Made by a program: the position numbers and the translations under genes. The notes under the pieces were generated by a model. The model had not been told where the DNA came from. It saw only the letters and a program-made list of their open reading frames with translations, and searched no databases. DNA of 64,000 nt. It comes from Isurus oxyrinchus. Taxonomy: Eukaryota. The number at the start of each line of letters is the position of its first letter. Position 1 is the stretch's first letter. The stretch is from positions 21,390,001 to 21,454,000 of the forward strand of contig JANJGN010000022.1 of the NCBI GenBank assembly GCA_026770705.1, in the 5' to 3' direction. Positions 2,885-63,789 of this stretch are shown in pieces.

Positions 2885-3456
2885 TTACAAAAGTAATCTA
2901 TTTAGCCCATTCTGATTGCAGGAAATCTTGTTGTTTACTTGTTAGTGCATTGATTGAATTAAGTATTTAAATCAGTGAACTACTTTGATCTAGGATCTAT
3001 AAGCCAATGCCTTTTTCTTTATTTAAAAGTGAAACTAAAGAAACTGTTTAAAAAGGCCATAGACTATACTTTTCTGGCAAGTATTTTGGCATAGGTCATT
3101 TGTAATAAGATCTGCTTTATTTGTTTGAATGTTATTATTGTAGTCCTGTTAATGCAAAACTGCGCAATGTTCAGGCTATGTCTAGTATATTAAAACCAAA
3201 ATACTGTAGATGCTGGAAATCTGAAATAAACAGCATTTTGTTTTTAAGCATATTGACATTTATTATAGGTAAAAAAAAATTTAAAGTGATGAAACATGCT
3301 CATTGCTTGTATTCACGGCATAAAACTCTGTGACAAATCTTGTCTTATTATAATCTTCTGTTACCAGTGTGATTTAGCCAGTAATTGACATTTTCTTTTA
3401 CAAATGTCACAATGCTACATGATTTCATTGCAAATTCTTGTTTCTGATGTATTCAG

Positions 3457-3476: not shown

Positions 3477-5113
3477 AGCCCCATGCTACGATCTATATAA
3501 ATTGTCATTGATATGTAAACATGTCGTTATGACGTTGTGTGCTGTCAGACTAGTCAATAAACAATTAGTGTACCAGCTTTAAAAATATTCCTACACTGTT
3601 TTAACAAAAAGTATTTATACATTAATGGGTACTCGAGGAACAGTTCCAAGATGCATTCCTTTGGAGATTATAACCTAGTAATCATTCCAAGATTTTTTCC
3701 AACGGAGCCTGTGTTTGTGTGATAATTTCATTGGCCCAATTTTAGTAAGATGACAAACTATTCCATTTCTTTTTGGCAGAGTCAGATGGATCACTGGTAT
3801 GGAAGTTCTGTGTATTTGATACCCTCAGCTTGGCCTAGCAAAAGGGTCAATGATACCAGCATTTATAGGTTAAAACCATTTGTTGGTTTGTTTATAAATG
3901 TATATCTCTTTTTTTTTTAAAAAAAGATTTTCTGTGTTCTGCTGTGAAGCATAGATGTAATTTTCAGTGAACAGTGGAGAGGATGCATTGAGGTGATAAA
4001 TGGCAGGGAAATTCTCTTGGAGCACATATGTTCCAAAATGTGGTGTCATTGACATGACTATAAACTGATTGGAAGCTGGTTGCACTCTTTTTTTCCCAGC
4101 CAAAATTAAGTATTCCCTATGCCCCCTTCAAAATATATTTGCTCTAATCAAGAAGGAAAGCAGGCAATCTGTTTGCTGGCTCTGACAGTGCTGCACTTGT
4201 GCTAGCTTTTAGGTTCGACATGAGTGGTAGCAATTGACTTGTACAGTTTTTCCTCTGAACGTGAAACAGTGGCTAAATCCTTATGGTACTGATAGATCTA
4301 CAAATGTGCTTTTAACCCCTATGTAGTAAACTGAATAAAACAATGAATATTATACTTTTGTTTGTATAGTTGTCTCAGCAACCGATCACATTATGTAGTT
4401 TTGCTACCAGCATATAAGTGCAATAATTATATATTCACTCAGCCTACTTTGTGATCTTGCCCTGCTTTAAGCACCCTGTTGGATTGTTTTAACCTTTTCC
4501 TCTCTGCCTGAAAAAATTTCTTGGTGCAATATTACTAATTAAAATCAAAAGACTTTAAAGGAAACAGTTACATCACTATAGGATTCCCCGAATGTAGAGC
4601 TTGAGAAACAACTCAACAGATCCCAGAATCTTAATGCCCCCAATTTGAGCTTTTCAGCAATGCCTCATTTCAGACATTACTTCATATGTTATATCTGTAG
4701 TCCCCAAATTGCAGTAACAGTTTAACCTGAAAGAAAGTGTGTAATAATCCAATCAGCTGTGAATAATTACATTTGGACTATCTCATTGTAAAGTCATAAC
4801 ATAGATTCTGATGATATTGGATATTTCAGATCTAACTTTTGTTCTCAGCTGTCCGGTATCATGTTAAGGGGTGTATTAAAATAATTTAAAATTTATGTGC
4901 AAGTGGTAACAAAAAAAAAAGCCAATGTCTAAAGTTCTCTCGAAGATCTAACGATGGTTGCCAGTCAGATGTGCTGGAACTTTACAAGTTTGCTGGAGAT
5001 CTTGCTTATTCAAAATTTGCTTAAAAGAATAGCAAGCTACAAGTTAGACTTAGGTCTTGGGCACCCCCTTCAGTGCAAGCCTGTCAGTAAGGTCTTTTTA
5101 AGCAGGTGCTATG

Positions 5114-5130
5114 TGACCCTGCTTTGACCT
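5114..5130 (-). promoter_or_regulatory. Consensus DR5 nuclear-receptor element (RARE-type)
   Basis: Minus strand reads AGGTCA aagca GGGTCA, an exact RGKTCA-N5-RGKTCA match; function untested. Confidence 0.4.
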
Positions 5131-5804
5131 TCACCATCTGTGTCCTGTTTTTCCTGATGCAAAAATACTCCAATTCTGCATTCAAAAGGAACAAACGTAA
5201 AACACGCGTCCTGGGGATTATCCTAACATTGGGGCTGTCACAATAATTTATTACCAAATTAACCAGCCCTGATGAGACAAAATATTGATTATTTTTAGCA
5301 TAATGATGGTAATGTTTAATGTGATAATTGTATGAGCTGTGGCAGTAATTGTCACTATGTTAATTGTGCCTAAATCCTTTCACGTGACATATCCTGACTT
5401 TCTCGGAGGGAACCTCATTGTTCTTCTGTGGAAGAGCAGAAGAGAATGTGGCTTGAGTTGAGGCTCATTTCAATAATGGAAATCTACAGCATTTTCTTGT
5501 ATTTAATAGCTGGAATGCGTTTTCCTTTCAATAAAGTGCTGATGGGCAAGAATGATATTTCCATTTACAGAAAGGTTCTTTGGCAGTTTCTATACTTGGG
5601 TGAAAATACGTGCATAACAAGGATCACATAGACTTGCTTCACAGCAGTTCTTGAACACTACCAAGCAGCCTTACTCCTTTGATCTGTAATAATTCTTCTG
5701 CTATCAAAAATGATCCTTTTTTTTCCCCAGAGTGTATAAATCCAGTACTTTTTTGGAGTAGCAAACAGACATTAGCCTTGGAAGAATAAACATAAACCCA
5801 GTAA

Positions 5805-5925
5805 TGATTGTCAGAGGAAATGTCATTGATCTGAAACGTTAACTCTGTTTCTGTCTCCGCAGATGTTGCCCGACTTGCTGAGTATTTCAGATTTCCAGCA
5901 TCTGCAGTATTCTGCTTTACTATAC
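5805..5925 (+). mobile_element. Penelope-derived terminal fragment (family B), decayed hammerhead region
   Basis: ctgaaacgttaactctgtttctgtctccgcagatgttgcc...gctgagtatttc, shared with 7388, 30400, 35460 and 63600. Confidence 0.75.
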
Positions 5926-6989: not shown

Positions 6990-7387
6990 ACTTAATCCAT
7001 AATTTATGTTTCATATTTATATCTATATTCCGATCTCTTGTATAGAATTTGAATGCTTGTTTGCATCAGCAATAAATCTTGAATATGAATGACTCACTGA
7101 AGAACCGTAATGCGAGGAAATAATACTTGATGTGCAAAGTATAGAACAAGGCTTGCTCATTTTTTTTGAAAAGGATAGAGTCTAAAAATGTATTGGAACA
7201 AATAATAAATACACTTTTTTGACTTCAAGCTAAAGTATTAATCCTTCATGTATAAAAGTGTCGATTTTGTTCAGTTCGCACTTTTTTGAATCAAGACTAT
7301 AGATTTGAATGTCATGTGAGTGGATAATCCAAATTGAGTGTAGCATTGTTGTACTCTCCTTCAAATGAAACATTAAACTGAAGCTGT

Positions 7388-7489
7388 AATAAAAACAATG
7401 ATTACTAGAAATACTCAGCAGGCCTGACAGTATCTGTGGAGAGAAACAGAGTTAACATTTCAGGTCGAGATGATCTTTCAACAGAACTG
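7388..7489 (-). mobile_element. Penelope-derived terminal fragment (family B) inserted in an old SINE
   Basis: 14-bp direct repeat TAAACTGAAGCTGT at 7374-7387 and 7490-7503; minus strand ctgttgaaagatcatctcgacctgaaatgtta is a decayed hammerhead. Confidence 0.8.
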
Positions 7490-13906: not shown

Positions 13907-16437
13907 CCACCAATTTTCTTAAGTTTTTGCTATTTTGAAAACTTCAGTTAATTTCTAAGCTTATCCCTCAATGAAAAAGACACCTTTTTTAACATCTGTT
14001 TTAATAATTATAATCTCCTTTTCCTGGTATACCCGAGACAGAGGTACAACAAAGGCTGAATTCAGGATATCAACAACATTGTTCGACTCACTGGTAAGTT
14101 AAGAACAGGTAAGCTATCTATCGAATTTCTCCGCGGGTGTATTAGACCCAAGGTTGTGCCACTGTTCATTTCCAAGTTTATTGATAATGCTAAAGTGAGA
14201 CACAGTCCTACTATAGAGCGAGCATTTATGCAGGTTGAGACTGAACTGAGTGATAGTAGGGTTACTAATTTATGCCATGTCCTACACTGTGTCTGGCCCG
14301 AGGTACGCAAATTTCTTTCATTTTTCAATTTGATCTGTGTGCCACTATTTTGCCTCAATAGATGACCACACGATAAAAAATGCATGCTTGAAACATGCCT
14401 GCAATGTAAACTCACTTAGGCGGAAGTGGTTTGGCACTGCAATTAATGACGCCGCCAAATACTTAGTCAAGATCTCTGACCATGCACTCTGAAAATAAGT
14501 AGTTTGTTCTCACACATGGCTTCAATTTTAGTGTGCCTTCGTCCCACATCAAACAGGAGTTCATGTTTGCTAAGCATAAACTCCTCTATTCCCAGCTATC
14601 CTGCCACAAACCAACGTCCAATGAAGACGATGAGTTCTTGAAAGCACACCGAGCTGATCTAGTGCACACATATTGCGGGATACCCAATGACTTAGCCGAT
14701 TTTCACATGCATCACAAATATCTGGTAGCATCGCAAGGCCTCAAGGGCAACCTAGATTTACATATCTGTAAGCCTGACAAAGGAACTGGAGTAGTCATGC
14801 TTAACAAGCATGACTATGTTGACAAAATGCAGGCCATTCTTAATAATGGGTCCAAATTTGTACTCTTTGGACCTGCTGCTAAGCATGATCGCACAGCCCT
14901 GTTTGAAGGCAAGTTACAAAAACGCTTATTGGCCTTGTGTAAGATTAACAAGTTGCCTGATTTTTTATATGTTAGGATTCAACCTCACGGTTCACTGTGT
15001 CCGCACATGTATGGGCTTCCCAAGATGCACACAAATGATGCCCCTTTATGCCTTATCTTATCCATGACAGATTCTGCATAAGATGAATTGTCTGAATGGT
15101 TGAGCAAGTTGTTACAACCAGTTCTGAGCAAATTTTCCACATGCACGGTGAAGGACGTCTTTGCAAAGACCATACAGGACTTGCATATCGATAGTAATGC
15201 CGTGTCCATATGCTAGTTCAACATTGCTAGCTTATTCACTAATGTGCTGCTCAAGGAATTTGCACCATATTACTATATCATGGTGATCTTGACATGCCGC
15301 CATTTTCTGAATCCGTATTTATTAAACTTATGAACTCAGCAACTTGCGCATAGATGATACGTTTGCTATATTTGAATCTGTAGCTGCATGTAAGAATTTC
15401 CTTACATCAATGAGCTCCATCATGCGCTCCAATTCACCATTGAAATGGAGCAGTCAAATGAGCTCCCTTTTCTTGATGTGCTAGTTCAGAGATCTGCCAG
15501 TGGGTTATCTACTACTGTCTACCACAAGCTCACCTTCACTGGTGACATACTTGCTGAAATTCCTGCAGTTCCATATGCTATAAGATTGGCCTTATCAGCA
15601 TCCTGGTAAATGGGGCCTGAGCCGTTTGCTCACAGCGTAAGCTTGTTGCGGAAATAGGGCGCATCAAAACTATCCTGCAGGTAAACGGCTATTGTGCAAA
15701 CTCATGAATGGGCCTAAGGCCTCCATGTTTGGACCTGAAGGGTGCTCAATGTACATCAGATTATCCTGGAAGGATAAGCTGTCTCAAAAATTTGAGCAAC
15801 ACATAAAGCTAGTCATTTCACCTGCTACTATGCAGTAGCAACACGAGCCCTAATTTCCACTAACAGGATGCTGCCAAAAACACGTTCTGCCTACCACACA
15901 AATGAGCCATATGGCATATGAATTTCAGTGCTGGTGTGATGCCAGGTATGTAGGCCGCACATCCCGATGACTGATGGATTGTATCAAACAGCATGTCCCT
16001 TTGGTTGTTTGCAGCAGGCAAAGTACTGATGTACTCAACCAGCCTATGCTTGCAAAACTCAAAACATGGTGTCCAACACGAGATGTGATTCCATAATTGG
16101 AGAACAGTTACTATGCAATCCCGATTGTGCTAAAAATTGCACTAATGACCAATTTGGAGTTCAGTTGGGCTCAGTGTGGCTTCTGTATGTGTACTGGAAG
16201 CTACACACAGGACCCTGTCCTTTGCAAACAGAACATATCCACGCATTGTACCTTATTCAGCAAAACCATTCCCTGGTTCATTTCCCAATGCAATTGATCA
16301 ATCAGAGTTGTCTAGCTTGGTTTGAGTTTGAACAAAAACTTCGCAGTTAACTGTTTCCTCCATGCATTCTCCATGGCAACACCTCTGCCAATCAGAGTCC
16401 ACTTGCCAACCAATTAGCACCCTCTTTTCTTGCAGTA

Positions 16438-19400
16438 AGAACATAACAAGAAATAAGAGCAGGAGTAGACCACATGGTCCTTCGAGCCTGCTTCACCATT
16501 AAATACGATCATGGCTGATCTTGGCCTTCCAACTCCATTTTCCCATCTGCTCCCTATCTCCCTTAATTCCCTGAAAGACCAAGAATCTGTCTGTCCCAGT
16601 CTTAAATGTATTCAACAATGGAACATCCACAACCCTCTGGGTTAGAGAATTCCAAAGATTCACAACCCCTTGAATGAAGAAATTTCTCATCTCAGTCCTA
16701 AATGATCGGTCCCTTATCCAGAGACTGTGCTCCCGTGTTTTAGATTTCTCGACCAATGGAAACAATTTCTCTGTGCCTATCCTATCAAGCCCCTTCAGAA
16801 TTTTGTCAGTTTCAATTAGATCGCCTCTCTTAACTCCAGAGAATATAAGCCCAATTTACTCAACATTTCATTATAGAACAAACCCCTTACCCCAGGGGCC
16901 AATTTAGTGAACCTTCGCTGTACCACCTCCAATGCAAGTGTATCCTTTCTTAAATGTGGAGATCAAAACTGCACACACTATTCCAGATGCGGCCTCACCA
17001 AAATCCTGTACAACTGTAGCAGGACTTCTTTATTCTTGTACTCCAATTCCTTGCGATAAAAGCCAACATTCCATTTGTCTTCCTAATTGCTTGTTGCACT
17101 TGCATGCTAACTTTGTGTTCCTTGTACAGCAAACCCAAGCATGTTTGAACATCAACACTTACAAGTTTCTCATCTTTTAAAAAGTATTTTGCTTTTTATT
17201 CTTACGGTCAACGTAAATAACTTCACATTCCTCTATATTCTACCCCATCTGCCACCTTGTTGTCCACTTACCTAACCTGTCTTTTTCTATTTGCAGACTC
17301 TGCCTTCCCCATAGCTCACCTTTCCACCTAGTTTGCTATCATCAGCAAATTTAAATCCATTACTCTCTTTCTTCATCTAAGTCATTAATATACACTGTAA
17401 ATAGCTGAGGCCCCAACTGATCCTTGCGGCACACCGCTATTCAGTGCCTGCCAACTTGAAAAAGCCCCATTTGTACCCACACTGTTTTCTATCCGTTAGC
17501 CAATCCTCTATCCATACTAATATATTACCCCCAACTCCATAAGCCCTTATTTAGCCTATTATTTTTTTGTGCTGCACCTTACCAAATGCCTGTTGGAAAT
17601 CCAGGTATGCTACATCTGTTGGTTCCCCTTTATCTACCCCATTAGTTACATTCTCAAAAATTCTAAGAAATTTGTCAAACAGGATTTCCCTTTAGTAAAA
17701 CCATGTTGACATTTCTAATCATACTATGCTTTTGTAAGTGCCTTAAGAGTTTCTTAATAGACTCCAGCAACTGATAAGCTAACTGGCCTGTAGTTTACTG
17801 CTTTCCCTCTCCCTCCTTTCTTGAAAAGTGGTGTAATATTTGCCAACTTCCAATCTAGTGGGATAAATCTAAATGTAAGAAATTTTAGAAAATCATAGCT
17901 AGCACACCTGCTATCTCTATAGCTACCTCTTTTAGGGTATTGGCCATCAGGTCCTGGGAATTTATCGGATTTTAGGCCCTTAAGTTTTTCCAATACTTTT
18001 TCTCTATGGATATTAATTTCCCTAATTTTCTCACACTTTTTAGCCCTTTGGTTATTGTCTCTTTCTGGTATGGAGCTTGTGTCATCTACTCTGAAAGCAG
18101 GCACAATATTTGTTCAATGCCTCCACCACTTCCATGTTTCCGATTTTTCTCCTGCATTTGCTTCTAAGCAACCAACGTTTACTTTAGCTACTCTATTCCT
18201 TTTTATATACTTATAAAAGCTCTTACAGTGTGTTTTTATATTTCTGGCTAGTTTACTTTCATTGTATTTATATCATTTTATCAACTTTTTGGTGGCTCTC
18301 TGCTGGTTTCTAAAACACCCAATCCTCAGATTTACTATTGCTTTTTGAAATATTGTAAGCCTGTTCTTTTAATCTAATACTATCCTTAACTTCCTGAGTG
18401 AGCCATGAGTGGGTCCTTCTTGCTGAGTTTTTGTTCTTCAATGGAATGTATTTTTGTTGAATGTCTTTAATTGTTTCTTTAAATGTTTCTCACTGTTCAT
18501 TTACCTCCATACCTTTTTGTCTATTTACCCAATTAATCTTAGCCAGTTCTCCCCTCATACTTGTAATTGGCTTTGTTTAAGATTTTTGTTCACGATTGGA
18601 ATATGTCAATTTCAAACTTAACATGGAATTGAATGGTATTATGGTCACTATTTCCCAGTGGATCTTTTATTAGGACATTCCTAATTTTTTATTATTCTTT
18701 CCTGGGCTGCGGCTTCACTGCCAAAGCCAACATTTGCAGCCCACCCCTGATTGCCCTTGAACTGAGTGGCTTGCTAGACCATTTCAGAAGGCAGTTAAGA
18801 GTTGACCACACTTCATTGCACCATACTGGATCTAAGGTAGCTTTATCCCTAGACGGTTCCACTACTTACTGATCCAAGAAACTGTCACGAAAACATTCCA
18901 CAAGCTCATCTTCCAGACCATTTTTGTCAATTTGATTGTCTCAGTCGATATGAAGATTAAATTCCCCCACAATTATTACATTTTCTTTGTTACAGGCTCC
19001 AACAATTTCTTGTTTAATGCCAATGGTATAACTACTAGTCAACCTATAAGCTACTCCCGCCAGTGTTTTCTGACCATTGCTTTTGCTAATTTCCACCCAT
19101 ATTGATTCTACTTCATGATCTTCAGAGGCCAGATCCTTTATCACTAATGTCCTTATGTCATGCTTTACCAAAAGGGCTACCCCACCTTTGCCATTCTGTC
19201 TGTCTTTCCGAAATATTGTGTATCCTGAAATATTTATTTCCTAACTTTGATCACATTGTAACCATGTTTCTGAAATGATGATTAGATCTGAAGCATTTAC
19301 CTCTATTTGTGCAACTAATTCAACTATCTTATTGCAGATGCTTTGTGAATTCAAATAAAGGAGCTTTAATTTCATTTTTTTTACTTCCGTTCCCTGCAAT

Positions 19401-19744: not shown

Positions 19745-19974
19745 TGAGAAAAAATTAGAGGGTGGTAAATCTTTGCAATTCATTGTCCCCAGTGGGCTGT
19801 GGAAGCTCAATCATTGAGCAAGTTCAGGACAGAAATCAATGGATTTCTGGCGACTGATAACATAAAGGGATATGGAGATAGAGCAGGAAAGTGGCACTGA
19901 GTAGATGATCAGCCATGATCTAATTGAATAGCAGAGCAGGCTTGATGGACTGAATGGCTTACTCCTGTTTATGT
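19745..19974 (+). mobile_element. CR1 3'-end fragment, opposite orientation to the adjacent CR1
   Basis: gatcagccatgatctaattgaatagcagagcaggcttgatggactgaatggctttactcctg tail. Confidence 0.8.
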
Positions 19975-20112
19975 GAGCACAAGACAAGACAAAAAGCTTC
20001 AACAACTTGTCTCTTTCAGAAATATTCTTGGTATACTTTTTTTAAAAAAAAAATTGCTGTACCCTTTCTATTGATGTAATATCCTGCCCAAAACTGTACG
20101 CAATACTCCATA

Positions 20113-30391: not shown

Positions 30392-31175
30392 ACCTGAAAT
30401 ACAAATGCAGGAAATACTCAGTAGTTTAGGCACCATTTGTGAAGACAGAAACAGAGTTAAGAATTCATTTTGCTGATCTTTCATCAAAATTAGAAAATGT
30501 TACAGATGTAAGAGGTTTTAAGTAAATACAGGAGCAGGGAAAGATTGGGTGAGGATAGGGGGAGGAAATAACAAGAGGGAAGGTTTGTGATGAGGTGGAA
30601 GGCAAGAGTGATTAGTTGATAAAAGGAATAATGGTGCAAGGCAAAAAGGGATGGTAACGGGAAAAGGAAAGTGCGAAAATAAAAGATGGGTTTAGAGGAG
30701 CTGTAAATTACATCAGTAGAATCATTTATCAGCACCTGTTGACTTGAGAAAATGGGAGCAGTGGTTATGATCTGGAATTGTTGAACTCTGTTGACTCTGG
30801 AAAGTTGCAAAGTACCTAATTGAAAAATTAGTTGCTGTTCCTTGAGTTTCTGTTTAGCTTCAATGGAACAGTCTATGAGGGAGAGGGCAAAGAGCTAATG
30901 GCAGTAGGGCGGAGAATTAAAATGGCAAGAAACCAGAAGCTCAGGGGTCATGCCTGCAAACAGAACAGAGGTATTCAGCAAAATGATCACCCAATCGGCA
31001 TCTGGTCTGCCAATGTAGCAGTGAACACAATATGCAAAATTGAAATAAGTATGAGTAAATCACATTGCAGGAGTATTTGGGGCCCTGAACAGTTGATAGA
31101 AAGGAGTGAAAGGGCGGGTGTTGCATCTCCTGCTTGCATAGGAAGGTGTCATGGGAAAAGGAGAGGGAGATGGGT
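30392..31175 (-). mobile_element. Penelope family B 3' fragment
   Basis: Reverse complement of the 35020-35575 type (GIY-YIG C-terminal region plus terminal repeat). Confidence 0.75.
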
Positions 31176-35019: not shown

Positions 35020-35575
35020 GGTTTATTTTAATTCTCCATCCTGCTCCCACTCTGGCCTCTCTGCAATTGGCCTACTGCTCTGCCTAAACAAGAGGGAACA
35101 GCATCTCATCTTTCTATCAATCACCTCAGAAGCTTCCTGGCTTAATGCTGAGTTCAACAATTTCAGATTGTAATATTGGCCCCTATTGTGTTTGTTGATT
35201 TTGGTCTTTCTCTCTTGTTTTTCTCTTTTTTTGCTTTTGGATGGCAGCTGTTCACGATTTTGCCATTCACACCTCCCCTAGACATATCTTTTTTTTTTAC
35301 ATGTCCCATTACCACTCCCTTTGGCCTTGTAATATCAACGTTTTGTCATTTAATCTCTCCTGGCTTTCACCCTATCGGAGACCTTCTCTTTGTTTTTTTT
35401 CCCGCCCTCTCCCCTTCACTTGCTTAAAATCTATTACTTTTCCCAGTTCATAGGTCATCAACCTGAAATGTTAACTCTGTTTCTCTCTCCACAGATGCTA
35501 TCAGACCTGCTGAGAATTTCTAGCATTTTCTGTGTCTATTTCAGGTTTCCATCATCTGCAATATTTTGCTTTTGT
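35020..35575 (+). mobile_element. Penelope family B 3' fragment
   Basis: FNSPSCSHSGLSAIGLL...EQHLIF...LNAEFNNFR resembles the Penelope GIY-YIG C-terminus; ends in the ctgaaatgttaactctgtttctctctccacagatgct terminal repeat. Confidence 0.8.
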
Positions 35576-38507
35576 ATGAAGGTTTAGAGTTGGACTAGTA
35601 CATTATCCGACCTACGGTGACATTGAGGCTGTTCACCTACAACTTTACTACAGCTCCACAAGAGGTAGCTGTTCTACTTTTAGTCCTTATTCATACTACT
35701 GCACTGTGGTTACCCCAGTAAGAGACCTATTACCCCTTAATATTATCCAAAAGTTAGTTACTTTTCAAACTCAAACTTCTTTGTGGCTCTCTAAATATGT
35801 ATGTTTTGCCACATCTACGAAGGTTATTCTAATATTTCCTAATGCTCTGCAAGTATAAAACTGGAAGTGTATGAAGCAAAAATTCAAAAGTTAGGCCTCT
35901 GATAAATATCAAAACTTTTATTATACTTGGTAACAATTTTTTTATGTCTGTAAAATTATTAATTTGAGATCTGCACACAAGCCGGTAAACAATACTGGAA
36001 TAGCCCTCAAGTACGTCGTGCGTGCGTGTGTGTAAACCACTGCTTCTGGAATTTGCTTAGCCTGTGAGAATTGGCTGATTGTAATTCCAGGGGAACACAG
36101 GTTTTATAGCCCAACACACTCAGCTTGTAAAACCTGACACCACTCATAAAGTCTTAAGTGCTACACTATTTTGCCAGCATTATACAAAACAACCTCCAGG
36201 GTGATTGTTAGATTACCATAATTATTGTGCATTCCAACTCAGATTGTTTCATATAAGATGAATATAGCTCCTTGAAGATCATTTAAACTCTGAGAATATG
36301 TTAATTTCATATCCTCTTGCTCCCTTTAATTCTACATCCTGCTGCGGAAATGGCTAGCTTGAGAGAAATTTGTACAGTCACAGTACAGTTTATACATTTT
36401 TAAAGGATTTTTTAAAAATGGTTTAATATCCTTGATATAAATAGTGATGGCTTTGAGTGCCTAAAGCATATTCTTTAAACAAGAAATCTAATTTACAATC
36501 TAAAATTTAAATTAAGTTTATTAAAACCTGCTAGCATTTCCCAGTTACTGTTGTGCAGTGTCTATTTATCTGGTTTCTTGTAGTGGGCTACAAATTTCAG
36601 GACTAAACCTAAATATTTTTCATTGGAAGAATCGAAGACTTTGGTTTAGAAATATCAAATTTATATTAATGATCCAAAATTTTAACACGCAAATAATATA
36701 TAAGCTTGCATCAAGATCAGAGTTGCATGTTAATCCTGTGTCTTGGAATGTCCTCATTTCATGCTGCTCTTAATCCAGCAATCTGTGGATTTTAATTATA
36801 ATTGTACTATGATCAAGATTACAGAAACCTAAATATAAAAATTTTTTTTGGTAACTTTATTAGGAATGTAAATTGGTTTCAGTTCACGTTTTGCAACCAA
36901 AGAAACATATTGGCCATTTTTTTTTTGTTTAACCCAACAATATCTGTACTATCACTTCACCCATTGCCTGGAAGCTTTGCATTTATGCTACGGCAGACAT
37001 GCATGTCTCGATTAAAAATGTGGTTTACAGTTTATACTGTAGTTATGTAGAATACAGTCACTGGTATCTGCCAGATCTGAATTTCCCAGCAGAGATGGTA
37101 ATGCAAATTTTCATTTCGGGGTTGAGGGTTACCTGGAGTAAACATTTATGTTTCCCTAGTTATCGGCATAAACACAGGCTGTTATCACCCGCCCAAATTT
37201 GTTTTCCCATTGGAGATAATAGGAGGACAGGCAGGATAAGGAAAAAATTACCTTATTTGGACCAGAACACACATGTAACTGTTGAAGAGTTGGCATGTGT
37301 CACCCAGTAATTGCTGCAGCTGTCTCCTAATTGGCATCTACAGGCAGTGAGTGGTACTTGTTGAGATTACAGTTTTAGAACATAGACTACGTGACAGATG
37401 TGAAAGGCACAGGTTGTAAGCCTATGAAAACACATGCCAAAATCAAGGGACACTGTTTCCCAGTATCATTTAAATATAAAGAAAATTGCAGTGTAATATT
37501 AGCTAGTATTATGTAATAAACAATTGCCCATTGGATTGAAAAAAAATGTAAAATATGTGGTAATTAAAAATGCACTTAATTTTCTAACCATTGGAGTAAC
37601 AGTGCACTTGTATAACGTTCAACTACCATCAATATTTATTCCTATATGTGGTCTAAAAATTACTGTTTTATACTTGTATACTTTGTCCCTTATATTTTCT
37701 AAAAATGATGTACTTGGAAACTACACCCCATTATTTCAGAATGGGCAGGTTATTTTTCTGTAATTTTTCATCTCTGGTGGTGGATAGCTACTTTCTATTA
37801 CATCACACCCAACGTTCTTCATTACCGGTCCTTGTCTGGAGTCAAATCACATAGACAAAACAGTGGCCATTTTCATGAATAAGGGAAAACAACCTTGTAA
37901 ATCTATATTTAAAGGATGACCTGCAGAGATGTTCAAGGTATAGTTTTGTATTTGTATCTATGTTGGGGCCTGACATTAATTCCACGTATTTATGCACCTT
38001 TTGTATTTTTTCCTTTTCTTATTAAACCATGCAGTTGTTTTGCTTAACTACTAACCAGCTGTGCACTGCTTTTACTCCATGCTGATAAATCATAAGATGT
38101 TGTTAGAGAGGCAAATATTCAAGAAGATAACAGGTGGTTTGAGGTAAATTCCACATTTAAAATTCCTTTGTTATCCTTTTAGTGGTGCAGCCATGAGGCT
38201 ACATTCTAAGCAAAATGAAGGAGCTTCGTACACTTGCAGAATTCATTCATAATGAACCATTCTTTGATACAGTTCATGTTGGGCCCTCACAGTTGCAGTA
38301 TTTCCTTTGTCCTAAATTATAACAGAAATCAACCACCTGTTGTTACTGTTCATTTCCTTGATGCTAAGTAGCTTCGTTTGCATACCTTGCTGTTACTTGG
38401 CATCTGTGATTTCTATGGTCTTTAAGCTGTTGCTGCCTTTGTAGTTTAATTTTAAGGAAACTGCATATATTTTCATGATCCTTATCAGAGATTCACTTTG
38501 ACACCAA

Positions 38508-48767: not shown

Positions 48768-49960
48768 GTACTGCAAGTTGTGGCTGTATGAGAATTCACT
48801 TTGAATTGAAATTGAAGATTTTGCTATTTATAGACTGATAGCTTGGTTGTTTTGCTCCTGGTATCGATACAAATTCGCATTTGCTCTATTTCTGTACTGA
48901 AGAACAAGGCAGCCTCTGTTTGTCCTGTCCTTGCTCCTTTATCAGTGTTCTTCAAGCTGATCTTGAATATTTACAAAAGTGGCCCAGGGATCATTTCTTC
49001 TCCATTTTCCCCTCTCATGTTAGGAAAGTACCAAGCTTTAGCATGACGCTTATTCAGAGTTTGGGAGAGAGAGAGAGAGACATTCCTCCTCAATTTTAAA
49101 AATTAGGCATTACTTGAGAAAAGGCTCATAACCCAATGAAAGAAAATGCCTTGAATAAATCAAAATTCCTGTTGATGTTTATTACCACTGATGAATCAGA
49201 AATGAGGTGTTTTTTAAAAAGTCATTTAAATATTTTTAATGCGATAATGAATTGACAGTAGTGTAATGAGAAAAACGGATAGATGTCATTAGGTGTATTG
49301 AAACAAGCAAAACAGCAGATATTCACCAATGTGCAACCAAGCACACATGGAAGCCCCAATTTGTGAGTGAAGAGCAAGGAGTGTCCATCCAAGAAAGAAA
49401 GTAAGTAAACTGATTGAATAGCCTAGTATATTTTTTCAAAACATTATCAGCTGGTTATTTAAGTCCTTCATGCTGGCTGGCTGGTTTTTGATCCCCTGAG
49501 CAACCTCATGGGAGTATCCAGCTTGTTGGGTCGATGAACTCGATAGTCGCTACTTGGACGAGATTTATGAATATTATTGGAATAAGATCTATTAATCACC
49601 TTGCTTTCGAGTCCAATGAGCCCGTATTGACCAAGTGATTGACACATTACAGCTTCATTTTGGCTGATCAGAAACAGGAACACACAAACATAGTATAAAT
49701 ATTTTTGAAAGTCATGATTGTATACAACTATTATAAGTCATAATTTATCTGCATTGTCTGTCATTTGGAAATGGTACGGTGAGAAGAATTGTGGAATGGT
49801 GAATAACTTCCAAATAAAAGATAAATATATTTTTAAAAGTTATAATTAAGTGACAGCTGTTTTTTTAAAAAAAAACAGATTTCCAGCTGCTATTATAGTT
49901 TGCTTAAGAATACTATAGAATTTGCATCTAGTCTTTACTGTTCATCATGTTTCTTTGCAG

Positions 49961-50416
49961 GGGTTGCTCATCCAGTGGGAGAGGCTCATCGACATGAACC
50001 ACCCATCCCACATGATGAAGTCATTGTCGATGAAGGAAAGGATGGTGACGAATCAAATGAAAAGGAGCTCCCAGCAGTGAAAGCTAAGCAGCCAAATGAT
50101 GAGGGGAAAATCAATTTTAATGAAAAGATGAAAGAATTGGAAGAGGAAAAGATGGTTAATCCAGGATTAAAAGAGCAGGGAAAAGAAATGGTCGACCACA
50201 TCAATGACGCACCAGCGGTTGATTCAAAACAAAGGGACCAGCCAGGCAAGGTGGCACCGGAGATGAACATTCAAGGTGCAGTACCTCAACCAGGTGTAGA
50301 ACTGCATCAGCAAAAGTTAAATGATAACCATGGCAAAGTTCCTGGAGGAGAAGATGCAGTGATTCATAACCCAGAAGGGAACGTAGAAAACATGAAGAAC
50401 AAAGAGTTGGAAAATG
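49961..50416 (+). CDS. SLC38A10: SLC38A10 exon (GVAHPVGEAHRHEPPIPHD...)
   Basis: ttctttgcag acceptor, G|gtaagc donor, 456 nt, phase 1-1; PVGEAHRHEPP.PHD is a hallmark conserved SLC38A10 motif. Confidence 0.95.
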
Positions 50417-50559
50417 GTAAGCGGCACCTAATGAGATCTGTCTAAAACCCTGATGGGTGCTGCAGTGGATCCTGCAAATTGTACATCCTATAGCCGCATT
50501 GCAATAATGGTGGGGTGGAGGATGGATATTGAGTCCTGTGGCAGGGACGTCAATCAAGT

Positions 50560-53092: not shown

Positions 53093-53229
53093 TGCAAAAA
53101 TTATAAATTCTAAGTTATAAATTAAAATGAACAATTGTGTAGGTTTAAAAGTGTAGAGCAAAAACTCAGCTATCACTTTGTTTAGCAGAAAAAATGCTGA
53201 TTTTGTGTTTACTCTTTTCTCTAATGCAG

Positions 53230-53397
53230 ATGATGAAAAACATATGGATCATATAGTTCTATTAAACGTGATTAAAGAACAGCAAGAACAGCAGAAGCGA
53301 CTTTTAGACCAACAAGAGAAACTGTTAGCCGTCATTCAGGAACAACATAAGGAGATCCACCAGCAAAGGGCTGATGATGAGGACAAAGGACAGCAGG
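53230..53397 (+). CDS. SLC38A10: SLC38A10 exon encoding the conserved Gln-rich coiled coil
   Basis: tgcag acceptor, G|gtaaga donor, 168 nt; [40 protein letters not shown] nearly identical to recalled human sequence. Confidence 0.96.
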
Positions 53398-54368
53398 GTA
53401 AGAGTCATTATGAAGAACAGAATCAAACTAAGCAATGCTTTATCATACTGGGAATCGCTACTTCAATGGAGAGATTCATCAGGACATTCCTTAATCTGGA
53501 TCACTTTTACTGATTTATTTGATATGAGGGAAAAGATTGAGACCAACTACTCAACTTTTTATTGATGTCACATCAACTTGTCATCAAAGTTGCTTAATGC
53601 TATAAAAGAAGTGGCAGATTCCTTAGCATTAGAAATCAAAAGTAAACTTTACATTATACCCTGAATTTTTACCTTTTTTGATATATAGCTAGGTACTAAA
53701 ATATATTATACTACAATATATTTTCCTTTAAATAATCCATCATTAGTGTGTGAGCTTTATAAAATAAGCATAAAAGAGCTGTTCAGATTTGCAGTATATT
53801 ATTAGCTCTCAGTTGTATATTTCCCATGTGAATTCAGTGACATTTTTCTGTAAAAAGAGAAAAGAAAGGTAATCATCAATATTTGATAAACTGCAGTAAG
53901 TACATTGAACTAAGTACTTCATTACAATCAGTCTAATTTAAGAGGCATCTTAAAATATATAGTGATTACGCTAGCAATAATATTTCTTCATTATTGGCCA
54001 GTTCTGTGCATGATGTGATATAGTATCAATGCTTTATCACAGTTCTTGTATTCCTCATTCCCATCGTTTGTCATAACCACCACATCAAGATAGTCATGGA
54101 GGGAAGTATTAACACTTTGTAACATTATGACTATTCATAAGCATCTAAGTATCATACCCATGTTACCTTAAGTTCTATTGGAGCAAGATATATTTGAAAC
54201 ACTGTCTTGCACTTTTCACCATTTTAACCTTTTTGATTACCTCACAACCTTGCAATATGCTCCAGCTTAGCCATTATGTGGGCTCCTCAAATGTACACCA
54301 GTTTGGAATCCTTCTCTTGAAGTAGTATCTGCTCTGGTGATCATGAAGCATTTTTACTTTGTGACATA

Positions 54369-54538
54369 TTTGCTGAAGAAAGACATTTTGCTGAAGCTTT
54401 TTGTTTTGCACTCATCAGGACAATCACAAGAATACCAATGTCAAACCTTTGATTGTCCTGATGAGTGCAAGATGAAAAGCTTCAACAAAATGTCTTTTTT
54501 CAGCAACGCTTAAGTTCTATGCTACCAAATGACTATTA
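54369..54538. mobile_element. Palindromic Penelope family A mini-element with two opposed hammerhead motifs
   Basis: Inverted arms spanning 54370-54506; 8-bp TSD GTGACATA at 54361-54368 and 54539-54546. Confidence 0.85.
54453..54488 (+). ncRNA. Minimal type I hammerhead ribozyme motif (partly decayed)
   Basis: ttgtc CTGATGA gtgcaagat GAAA agct TC aacaa: core intact, with two CpG-type changes in stems I and II. Confidence 0.6.
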
Positions 54539-55564
54539 GTGACATAATCTTAAGCAATAGTTAGGTAATGGATATACATATAAAGGAACAATTATCTAAA
54601 GAAATAGTTTAAAAACTTCAGACTTTTTTGCCAGGGTAGATGTTATTGAACCAATGGAATTTGCTGAAGCAATGCATTATTACTAAAAAATGAAGACATT
54701 AGGTTTGAACTCAGTTTTAGGGAAAGCAAACAGTGTGCAATAAATTTTCTAAGGTGTAAGTGGTTAGTGGAGGACAATAGTCTAAGGGATAATGAGTAAA
54801 TTTGAATATGTTTGAAAGGTTTCTTTAAAAATACCACAAAATCTTACATGAGCCATCTATACCAATCAACTGAGGCTCTCAAAGATTAATTAATTATCTG
54901 CTGCTTCCCCAGCCACCTCCTGAAATCTCTAGCCATTCCTTGCTGTTTTAAGCCACACCTGAAATTTCCAACACGCCCCCCCCCCCAATTTAAATAGTTC
55001 TACAGCTTTAATCCCTGAGCAGATGAGTGTTTAGCAGTATTAATAGATGTTATTTATATGTACATGTACAGTCTTAAAATAGTTGCATCTAATTCTGTGT
55101 CTTTAAAAAAATATGCACAGGAAGGCTCCAAGACAATGGTACTTAAGTTGTGGAGCTGTACCAAGAGACTTCTGGAGATATTTTTTCTCCTTTAGCAGAG
55201 TCCCTTGAGGGACCATATGAGCTTTAAATTTGTATTGAAGAGCATAAATGAAGTGGCTGTTAGGATGTTTGAAAGAAACAAGGGGAGAAGATTTGGAGTT
55301 TAAGAAACTGAACTAAAATTAAGTCAACTAATATTGTAAACTTGTAGAATAAGCTGCCATCAAGTGCCATAAATATTGAATCTATTAAGTGTGCCAACAT
55401 ATAGCTTGCCAGATTCCTGGTTAAAAATGGAGCTATGAATGAAATAGACATTTCTAAGAATAAAGATGGAATCATATTGAGTTGCTTTGACCTTTTTCTC
55501 ATGCCTTGGCCTTTGTGTGTTTCTGTAAAACACTTGCATTACCCTTTTTTTTCTTACTTTATAG

Positions 55565-56793
55565 ATGGTGAAAACCCCGCGAAAGAACAGGCAGGTAAAG
55601 AAAATGAAGATCAAGTAAAAAATGTTGACCCTCTGAATGGGCAGAAGGCAGAGAAGCCTAATGCTGATTTCCAGGGTGACGCTCCTAAACTTGGTCAGGA
55701 TCTACCAGCAGCTGACCATGATAAGGATGGTGTTGAACCTAAAGATACTTTGCAACAAGCTCAGGGCAATGTCCCAGAAAACCAGGATCAAAATCATGAC
55801 TCCAAACAGGATGGTGAAATTGGAGCTAATGTCGAAGCTCTCAAAGTTGCCCCTCAGTCTAGAGATAAATTTAAAGAAGTCATCCAAAAAATTGGGACTT
55901 CAAACCTTTTCTCAAAGGGCAAGGAAGTTGAAAGGGTGGTGCCACAACCTGATGCTAAAGTCCCAAAAGTTGTCCAGCATGATGAAGGAGCAAAAGCTTC
56001 CCAAGAGCATGGGGTTAAAAATCCAAATGTTCCCTTGGAGAATGAGGTCAAAGTTGAAAGGGAAGGACCCGAAGCTGGAAATAGAAATCCAAATGTCCCA
56101 AATAATGGGGCCAAAGTCCCGAAGGTTTCTGAAGATCTCGGTATTAAAGCAAAATCAAAAGACGAAGTTCATAAGATTGATTCCAAAGTTGACACCAAAC
56201 CTTTAAAAGCTGAGCAAGTAGAAGAACATGGGAGTGACGAGAAGAATGGGAAAGTGAAAGTCAGGGATAGAGGTGCATTTCAGGAAAAGCCTAACCAGCC
56301 AGGTGGACATATTGAAGATGGGAAGGAAAAGATCCATTGGCCTGTGAATGCAGGTAAAGTTCAAGGAGGAAATTTTATTGACAGAGCACAAGAGCTTGAT
56401 GAAAGAAAAATTGAGGAAGATGTAATGAAAAGTCAGAGAAAAGAGAAGGTTTTAGATGAAAACATTGACCTTCAGCATATGGACCCAAATGCACCACCAA
56501 AACACAAGGAAAAGAATCCAAGCCAGAAGGATGGTGAACCATACAAAGATTTGAAACTTGATGGAGGTGGTGACCTTCGTAGAAGGAAGAGAGACTTAAG
56601 GTCAAGTATGGAAGAAAGCTATCAAGATGACAGTGGTAAATTGATCATCAGCCTTGATCCAGTGCCAAACTTTAAGACTGATAATCTCCGAAGTGCACTG
56701 GAGAGCCAACTGAAACAGGTAGCAGGAGCATCATTCCAGATAGTTCAGAGCCGAAAGATAAAGCAAGTGACAGATACAGAAAAAGATACGTGA
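55565..56793 (+). CDS. SLC38A10: SLC38A10 last coding exon
   Basis: tttttcttactttatag acceptor, open to TGA at 56791-56793; C-terminus DLKL...DLRRRKRDL...IISLDPVP...NLRSALESQLKQVAGASFQIVQSR matches recalled human DLKL...DLRRRRRDL...IIGLNPLP...DLRGALDAQLRQAAGGALQVVHSR. Confidence 0.96.
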
Positions 56794-62380: not shown

Positions 62381-63558
62381 TAAGTGAATGAGTGAATATT
62401 TCTTTTAAATTTGCAACACAGACTTTTCAAATGTGTACTGTAATCTTATGAGCTTCAACAATCTGTGAATGAAATATGCATGGTATGAGATAGTTTAAGC
62501 CAAAAGCATAAAGAATTTATCTGCATTGGCAGTGTTGCGAGAGGCTCATTAAAGAGGACCTATCCACTGTTTTCGCAACCTATATTTGAAAACTCTTCAG
62601 CATTTAGTCTTTGAAACTAGCAGCTGCAGAAAGTTTATATCATACTAGCGGATATTTCATGATCGTGAGGCTACCAAAAATATCTGAATGATGCGGAGGA
62701 CAGCAAATGATATTAACTCAAAGGATGCACTTTTATAACAAGGAAGATATAGGGCAGAATTTTATAGTCCGGCCCAAGTCAATGGGCTTATGAATGGCTC
62801 GCCGCATTTTGTGGACATGCCACCACCACCATGAATTCCGCTCAATGTATATTTTATTATTCCGCTAAAAGAGGCAGCAGACTTTCTAGCTGGACTGAGG
62901 TTAACAGTGGCATTTCAAAAAGCGTGTCTTAGTATTCTTGGGGACAATTATTAATGAATTATATCAAAGCTGACCTGCACCAACACCTCTACTAAGCGGA
63001 GATGAAGCAGGATTTTTGTAGGGCTAACAAGGGGCCAGAAAATGGAAGTGCGGCAGGCTCAAAAGAAGATTATTAATAGGAAATTGCCGAGTTACAACCA
63101 AGTGCTTGTGACTGAAAAATGTGACACAGGACTGAGCATTCTTAATAGGAAAACCCTATTATGATGCCACCTTTGGGACTTAGACGTATGAAGGTTTGAA
63201 CTTGATTAACAGTGAAATCTCCATGAGGAATGCTGCCAGATGATATGATATGATGATAGCAGTGGTGAAATATCAGTCACTTAAGATTTTGTAGCTTGCA
63301 GGTTATACAGTGTTTACTGAACAGAACATATCCTTATATATTGCTGGAAAGAAAGACATGTTGCCGAAGCTTTTTGCCTTGCACTCATCAGGACAAAAGC
63401 AAGAATGCCAAATTTCTAACTATCGCAACAACTTTTACTACTGTTTTATTGTTTGAAACTTGGCATTCTTGCATTTGTCCTGATGAGTGCAAGACAAAAA
63501 GCTTAAGCAACATGCCTCTCTTTTTAGCAATAGTCAAGTCCTGTACTACCAAACAACT

Positions 63559-63713
63559 TTTCTTGGACTCGAAATCAAGTTCTGTCGAAGGGTCATGAGG
63601 ACTCGAAACGTCAACTCTTTTCTTCTCCGCCGATGCTGCCAGACCTGCTGAGTTTTTCCAGGTAATTCTGTCTTTGTTTTGGATTTCCAGCATCCACAGT
63701 TTTCTTTGTTTTT
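63559..63713 (+). mobile_element. Young Penelope family B terminal element
   Basis: 6-bp TSD ACAACT at 63553-63558 and 63714-63719; several CpGs retained. Confidence 0.8.
63578..63616 (+). ncRNA. Minimal hammerhead-like motif with variant core
   Basis: agtt CTGTCGA a gggtc atgag gactc GAAAC GTC aact: stems I and II pair, ACGT palindrome replaces stem III, core has T in place of conserved A6. Confidence 0.6.
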
Positions 63714-63789
63714 ACAACTGTTTGTATATCCTTATGTCTAATTCCAACAACTTCATTTTGGGAGCAGTAGTTTATTTAAGAATTTATAA

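Follow-up and report, generated by a model that had tools for sequence, protein, structure and literature searches.

A hammerhead-bearing palindrome in an intron of Isurus oxyrinchus: two truncated Penelope-like element ends, head to head

Introduction

Is a short palindrome with a hammerhead motif in its arms and TSDs at its flanks a mobile family of its own, or a remnant of a larger retroelement? The question is raised by a unit at positions 54361-54546 of a 64,000-nt stretch of Isurus oxyrinchus DNA (assembly GCA_026770705.1, contig JANJGN010000022.1, positions 21,390,001 to 21,454,000; hereafter the window), for which a first-pass annotation offered two options, a non-autonomous retrozyme-like family or recurrent abortive inverted insertions. 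EN+ Penelope-like elements (PLEs) are known to leave insertions with an inverted pLTR and an optional tail, as described in the accessible parts of the reports on Pen2a_Av (PMC3846280), of a general scheme (PMC8557442) and of the work on D. virilis Penelope (PMC2377424), and the accessible text of the scheme calls the origin of PLE inverted repeats undefined (PMC8557442). Minimal type I hammerheads occur in metazoan PLEs, and the accessible sections of that study report dual opposite-strand motifs about 100-700 bp apart and ascribe most motifs to truncated PLEs (PMC4209133). In the Poseidon element PAc of Anolis the hammerhead and the ORF start overlap, the tail lies between two RT start sites and uncleaved RNA is the main template; inverted products are left unexplained in the portion of this study available to us (PMC11167929). 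Non-LTR retrozymes, as far as the accessible texts describe them, consist of a fixed, hammerhead-bearing monomer repeated head to tail in tandem (PMC7229834; bioRxiv 10.64898/2026.07.22.740005).

Considering the unit together with its relatives across the genome, we give a probability of roughly nine in ten to an EN+ PLE insertion in which two 3' ends, each 5'-truncated, stand head to head, and which the element's RT-endonuclease likely made by copying its RNA from both nicked target strands. The locus itself is an ordinary decayed PLE insertion, and the inverted pLTR, the one-sided tail, the TSD and the opposite-strand hammerhead pairs are already published for PLEs in the accessible parts of the papers cited above. 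The remaining value is statistical, in the comparison of priming models given below, and the copy number allows counts to be predicted for experiments with PAc in vitro.

The unit and its host intron

The palindrome claimed in the first pass is real: 170 bp lie between two copies of GTGACATA (54361-54368 and 54539-54546; see table), and the inverted arms 54370-54426 and 54450-54506 are 91% complementary over 57 nt. The palindrome is asymmetric, since about 30 nt of the right arm (54507-54537) remain unpaired with the left arm. The strand is predicted to fold into a hairpin of -90.2 kcal/mol (z -15.9), a value that none of 200 shuffles equalled. The unit is two truncated 3' ends of a common RT/GIY-YIG PLE placed head to head, both cut to less than 90 nt, with the ORF start as all that remains of the coding region.

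Table. Features of the unit, its host intron and related copies in the window
Feature	Position	Strand	Remarks
Host intron holding the insertion, GT..AG	53397..55563	+	2,167 nt; spliced in contigs of probable RNA runs
Left TSD copy	54361..54368		8 bp exact, or 11 bp with one mismatch from 54358 (TSD scoring)
Inverted 5'-truncated PLE 3' end, short end	54370..54444	-	about -52 to +23 relative to the predicted hammerhead cut
Decayed minimal hammerhead	54388..54423	-	G12>A at 54402; stem I broken at 1.1 and 1.2
Junction between truncated arms	54445..54450		3-6 nt matching neither arm
Direct 5'-truncated PLE 3' end with tail	54451..54537	+	about -33 to +53 relative to the predicted hammerhead cut
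Minimal type I hammerhead	54453..54488	+	core kept (54458-54464, 54474-54477); C11.1>T at 54473; 1.1 G>A at 54484; cut predicted after 54483
PLE tail, about 30 nt	54507..54537	+	continues into the ORF in ORF-bearing copies
Right TSD copy	54539..54546		8 bp
Second, independent inverted insertion	63339..63559 (palindrome 63339-63532)		other junction, apparently other subfamily; both cores G12>A
Decayed RT/GIY-YIG PLE body	14029..16440	+	about 70% identical to the near-full copy L085
Decayed arm fragment	19970..20028	+	likely 3' end of the 14029-16440 copy

The host intron is skipped in contigs of all three probable RNA runs and covered by a fourth run. The surrounding + strand gene has exons at 49846-50445, 53229-53396 and 55564-56793, with the junction 53396/55564 spliced, and the peptides of these exons seem to resemble SLC38A10 in its C-terminal part. 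A second organism, at about 2% divergence, has a run whose contigs lead from both flanks into the arms, and the insertion is therefore likely to be old and shared. Since arm depth in contigs is the sum over all copies, it gives no readout of expression at 54361-54546.

The parent element

The exact 32-nt arm pattern has 810 + 728 = 1,538 matches in the 4.98-Gb genome, whose repeats have a shark-like appearance, and the reversed control of the pattern has none. A protein fragment of the PLE in the window led to 20 loci, in nine of which the arm was matched as well, and in most of the wider loci examined the arm adjoins PLE body sequence and sits at its 3' end, in agreement with the link to Penelope elements drawn in the first pass. 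In the copy L085, two direct arms enclose a body of about 2.5 kb with 70% identity to window positions 14029-16437, and the upstream tail continues into the ORF; the pLTR as a partial tandem with the ORF start is present in L085 and L086. In parent copies the RT motifs are followed by those of GIY-YIG, in broken frames, and none of the genomic PLE copies was found to have an intact ORF. A Pfam search of fragments of these copies gave nothing above the cut-off; the full-length protein homologues (45-49% identity) carry RVT_1, with GIY-YIG in P0007 and, weakly, in P0005. Taken together, the parent copies and the pairs display the RT with C-terminal GIY-YIG, the pLTR, the inverted 5'-truncated copy, the optional tail at one end and the short TSD that characterize EN+ PLEs. 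With regard to the Penelope/Poseidon clade, by eye no CxxC was noticed in the linkers of L085, L086, P0004 and P0007.

The frame opened by the ATG within CTGATGA matches the N-terminus of P0004 in register by eye, so that the ATG at 54461-54463 (core A6-U7-G8) is likely the parent's ORF start codon; N7 is T in 106 of 108 arms. With the start codon inside the hammerhead core, cleavage would separate it from the ORF. The overlap of hammerhead and ORF start and the two end positions bounding the tail are shared with PAc, whose ORF, in contrast, begins at stem II in the accessible text (PMC11167929).

The hammerhead motif in the family and in this copy

Motif columns were counted in 108 arms, none of them chosen by the exact 32-nt pattern, and the counts agree with the consensus arm motif and with the minimal type I assignment that the annotation had given. 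At the family level the CUGANGA and GAAA core, the NUH site, the G10.1-C11.1 pair, a stem I of 5 bp, a stem II of 2 bp and a palindromic stem III are all present; judged by sequence, the ancestor thus had a canonical hammerhead of the minimal type I, its stem II being 2 bp long. The core, the G10.1-C11.1 pair, the 5-bp stem I and the palindromic stem III resemble those in the accessible descriptions of metazoan PLE hammerheads (PMC4209133), whereas stem II has 7-8 bp in the Schistosoma examples and, in the ribozyme predicted here, 2 bp closed by a loop of 5 nt. Core sites outside CpG are retained in 89-98% of the arms, about as often as neighbouring sites, and sites 11.1-12 read TG in 67, CA in 25 and CG in 8 of the 108 arms; deviations at the two CpG sites are thus mostly TG or CA, as expected from the CpG decay already suspected. 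Stems I and II barely vary among the copies, which are very alike, except through this decay. The core, stem I and G10.1-C11.1 are all intact in only two of the 108 unselected arms, and the whole motif is kept in four natural copies.

The unit itself does not bear an intact motif on each strand, as had been proposed. Its core is kept by the + arm only, and the stems are broken in both arms: the + arm lacks C11.1 and the 1.1 pair, the - arm lacks G12, and both arms of the second palindrome in the window have G12>A as well. In both window palindromes and on either strand, structure prediction places the core in a duplex with its complement (probability unpaired <=0.001), and the copy at 54361-54546 is predicted to be catalytically silent and immobile, in line with the annotation's "probably inactive". 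A single sense ribozyme arising from either strand, as it had also suggested, fits poorly with a core predicted to be buried in this way and with one sense motif as against two per dimer; Lunse and colleagues are said to have described dimeric PLE hammerheads in 2017. The stem III duplex is predicted at only -4.3 kcal/mol. For an intact natural copy the monomer hammerhead fold comes to +1.7 versus an MFE of -7.9 kcal/mol, a comparison that is uninformative as hammerhead cores are unscored. The bare CTGANGA..GAAA pattern has 10 matches in the window versus 6.2 expected, and 9 of 100 shuffles reach 10, which is not above chance. What speaks for a ribozyme is the family motif and its PLE context. 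The hammerhead-model search that the annotation had called for returned no hammerhead in Rfam, the only matches being miRNA hairpins far below their gathering scores.

A genome-wide truncation series

Arms were mapped on a profile built from 22 real copies, and two samples of loci were used. The loci of the one (sample A) were chosen by their likeness to the 54361-54546 palindrome, which biases its counts of 54/59 pairs and of 24 and 14 longer arms given below. The other was picked by the 32-nt pattern only (68 loci fetched, 66 with a scorable arm), and in 29 of its loci 1.5-kb flanks hide longer pairs. Tail identity is bimodal among 177 arms, and the outer ends lie at two fixed places, either a short end or an end with a tail of about 30 nt. 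Among 61 head-to-head pairs, 54 combine a short and a tailed end (54/59 classifiable), three are short-short, two are tail-tail and two are unclassified. In the pattern-picked sample an inverted partner was found in 26 loci, 22 of which pair short with tail (p = 2.7e-4); the arms are 92 to 2,298 nt apart in a continuous distribution, with the cores within 200 nt in 9 of 26 pairs. A TSD score of at least 7 was reached by 29 of 54 pairs (lengths 7-16) versus 6 of 324 mismatched flank pairs, the score of the other 25 pairs being below 7.

The two arms abut in 40 of 54 pairs, and the 40 junctions differ, even among the closest BLAST matches, save for two pairs of junctions that coincide within about 1 nt (L002/L005, and the window copy with L006); by a rough estimate this is about chance level among some 20 palindromes of similar size. 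Of the endpoints that the annotation wished to see compared, the outer ones are fixed, at two places, and the inner ones vary. In the abutting pairs the short arm is longer in 24, the tailed arm in 14, and two are equal; in 22 pattern-picked pairs these numbers are 9, 10 and 3, and the short arm exceeds the tailed arm by up to about 560 nt. Arm lengths are correlated in the latter set (rho 0.50, p 0.017, n 22). Of 32 pairs that could be scored, 31 have both arms from one subfamily (13 on average after shuffling), and palindromes occur in at least five subfamily types.

Several loci show further details. At the junctions of L055, L074 and L103, 16-34 nt of filler between the arms fit neither arm. 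Two tail-to-tail arrangements within 1 kb (L013:1288-1535 and L112:3294-3456) are probably neighbouring or nested insertions, and at L101 a long inverted PLE insertion holds, in its right arm, a LINE-like fragment of about 1.5 kb (3940-5400).

Origin of the inverted arms

The pairs resemble published EN+ PLE insertions in that a direct copy faces an inverted, 5'-truncated one head to head, in the tail of 30-40 bp at one end, in a pLTR and tail that encode the ORF start and in TSDs of 8-10 bp; they differ from those in the accessible reports in that both copies of the present unit are below 90 nt and lack the ORF body, and in that thousands of arms can be counted. How such pairs arise may be pictured as follows. 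The target would be nicked on both strands with a stagger of about 8-12 bp, and uncleaved RNA would be copied into one cDNA from the short start site and into another from the tail start site. Both cDNAs would stop early, and host end-joining would link them where they are truncated, with short overlaps or some filler left at the junction. The hammerhead in the unit is the parent's pLTR motif, and because it lies 25-55 nt from the start sites, even the shortest products contain it, which places it in both arms. We infer the priming step from genomic end points: the positions of the outer ends correspond to the pair of RT start sites on either side of the PAc tail, and one end of each kind, TSDs, a shared subfamily and either arm being the longer fit two cDNAs from two nicks. 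In the literature covered, mostly from outside the subscription journals, neither a count of short/tail pairing nor a twin-priming proposal for PLEs was found.

A rival account, which agrees on the PLE insertion and differs in this step only, follows the published model and derives the inverted arm from self-priming or fold-back of one molecule (PMC3846280, accessible text); later central deletions would then have scrambled the junction. This model covers head-to-head repeats and would account for the same subfamily in both arms and for the correlated arm lengths, which would not be expected of fully independent truncations and which keep it alive; moreover, later central deletions in fold-back palindromes could also vary the junctions, and the five short-short or tail-tail pairs run contrary to a rule of one end of each kind. 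However, a fold-back copy can neither outreach its template upstream nor gain an absent tail, so that the longer short arms in 9 of the 22 pattern-picked pairs contradict self-priming, barring later deletions. Priming at both target nicks fits the data somewhat better, and we consider self-priming possible but rather doubtful. If twin priming is true, inverted pLTRs record PLE integration and arise without self-priming. In a tentative extension, which we would not expect to hold but which the end points allow to be formulated, a dimeric RT-endonuclease might prime two cDNAs, one per nicked strand, at different start sites; in its boldest form, the palindromic stem III would pair two RNAs near the start sites, thus dimerising rather than cutting.

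A discrete non-autonomous palindromic family of retrozyme- or MITE-like nature, mobile as a unit and yielding a sense ribozyme from either strand, is very improbable to us and largely refuted. Small palindromes are indeed common, units are flanked by TSDs and two pairs of junctions nearly coincide, but sizes are continuous, junctions vary even among closest relatives and several subfamilies are involved, which favours the annotation's alternative of recurrent abortive inverted insertions. The annotation had named random loop positions among copies as the sign against a discrete family, and as loop positions vary, that reading fails by a criterion set beforehand. The identical termini and interior of a MITE are replaced here by fixed but asymmetric outer ends and differing interiors. 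With non-LTR retrozymes the units share the non-coding nature, the type I hammerhead and the relation to PLEs, yet they are arranged head to head with variable junctions, no tandem arrays were seen among them, hardly any unselected arm is fully intact and the cores are predicted to be buried. Equally far-fetched in our view is exaptation, either as a hairpin RNA (miRNA-like or an editing substrate) or as an active intronic ribozyme of the host gene: a stable hairpin in a sense intron and the presence of the arms in the second organism would suit it, but the Rfam miRNA matches are far below gathering scores, the arms show the same CpG decay as other copies and non-CpG core sites are kept about like their neighbours. 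Hammerhead palindromes flanked by TSDs in such genomes should thus be read as the shortest products in a series of PLE truncations rather than as retrozymes.

Hammerhead cleavage was also considered as the source of the inserted 5' ends and was rejected, as there is no pile-up at the cut site. In a first look 5 of 42 inserted 5' ends lay at +1 to +9; in 93 unique ORF-start loci (three that lacked an anchor were left out), the counts per 10 nt between -20 and +49 are 3, 4, 5, 5, 4, 5 and 5 ends. Together with the 61 of 93 ORF-start copies that extend upstream across the cut site, this is in line with the uncleaved RNA template described in the accessible text on PAc (PMC11167929). The 5' ends at -29 appear to reflect alignments that break off where two subfamilies diverge at a boundary.

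Other copies in the window

The second independent copy that the annotation had placed at 63338 was found as a palindrome (see table), for which the TSD scan of the flanks gave no TSD; the two window palindromes appear to differ in subfamily type, one arm of each being unscorable. The partner RT/GIY-YIG element claimed for the window is present as well; at about 70% identity to a near-full copy it is a relative and not shown to be the donor. This body ends about 40 nt short of its hammerhead, and the arm fragment at 19970-20028 was likely split from it by later repeat insertions; the interval between 16440 and 19970 is taken up by other repeats, about 3.5 kb in all, that contain LINE-like frames. 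In addition, a second dispersed repeat (families D1 and D2; 3193-3235, 5822-5925, 7381-7468, 30403-30485, 35452-35579 and 63580-63717) carries a decayed hammerhead-like motif, in which stem II is longer and stem III palindromic. It is possibly the end of another PLE family, and one of its copies adjoins the 63338 palindrome.
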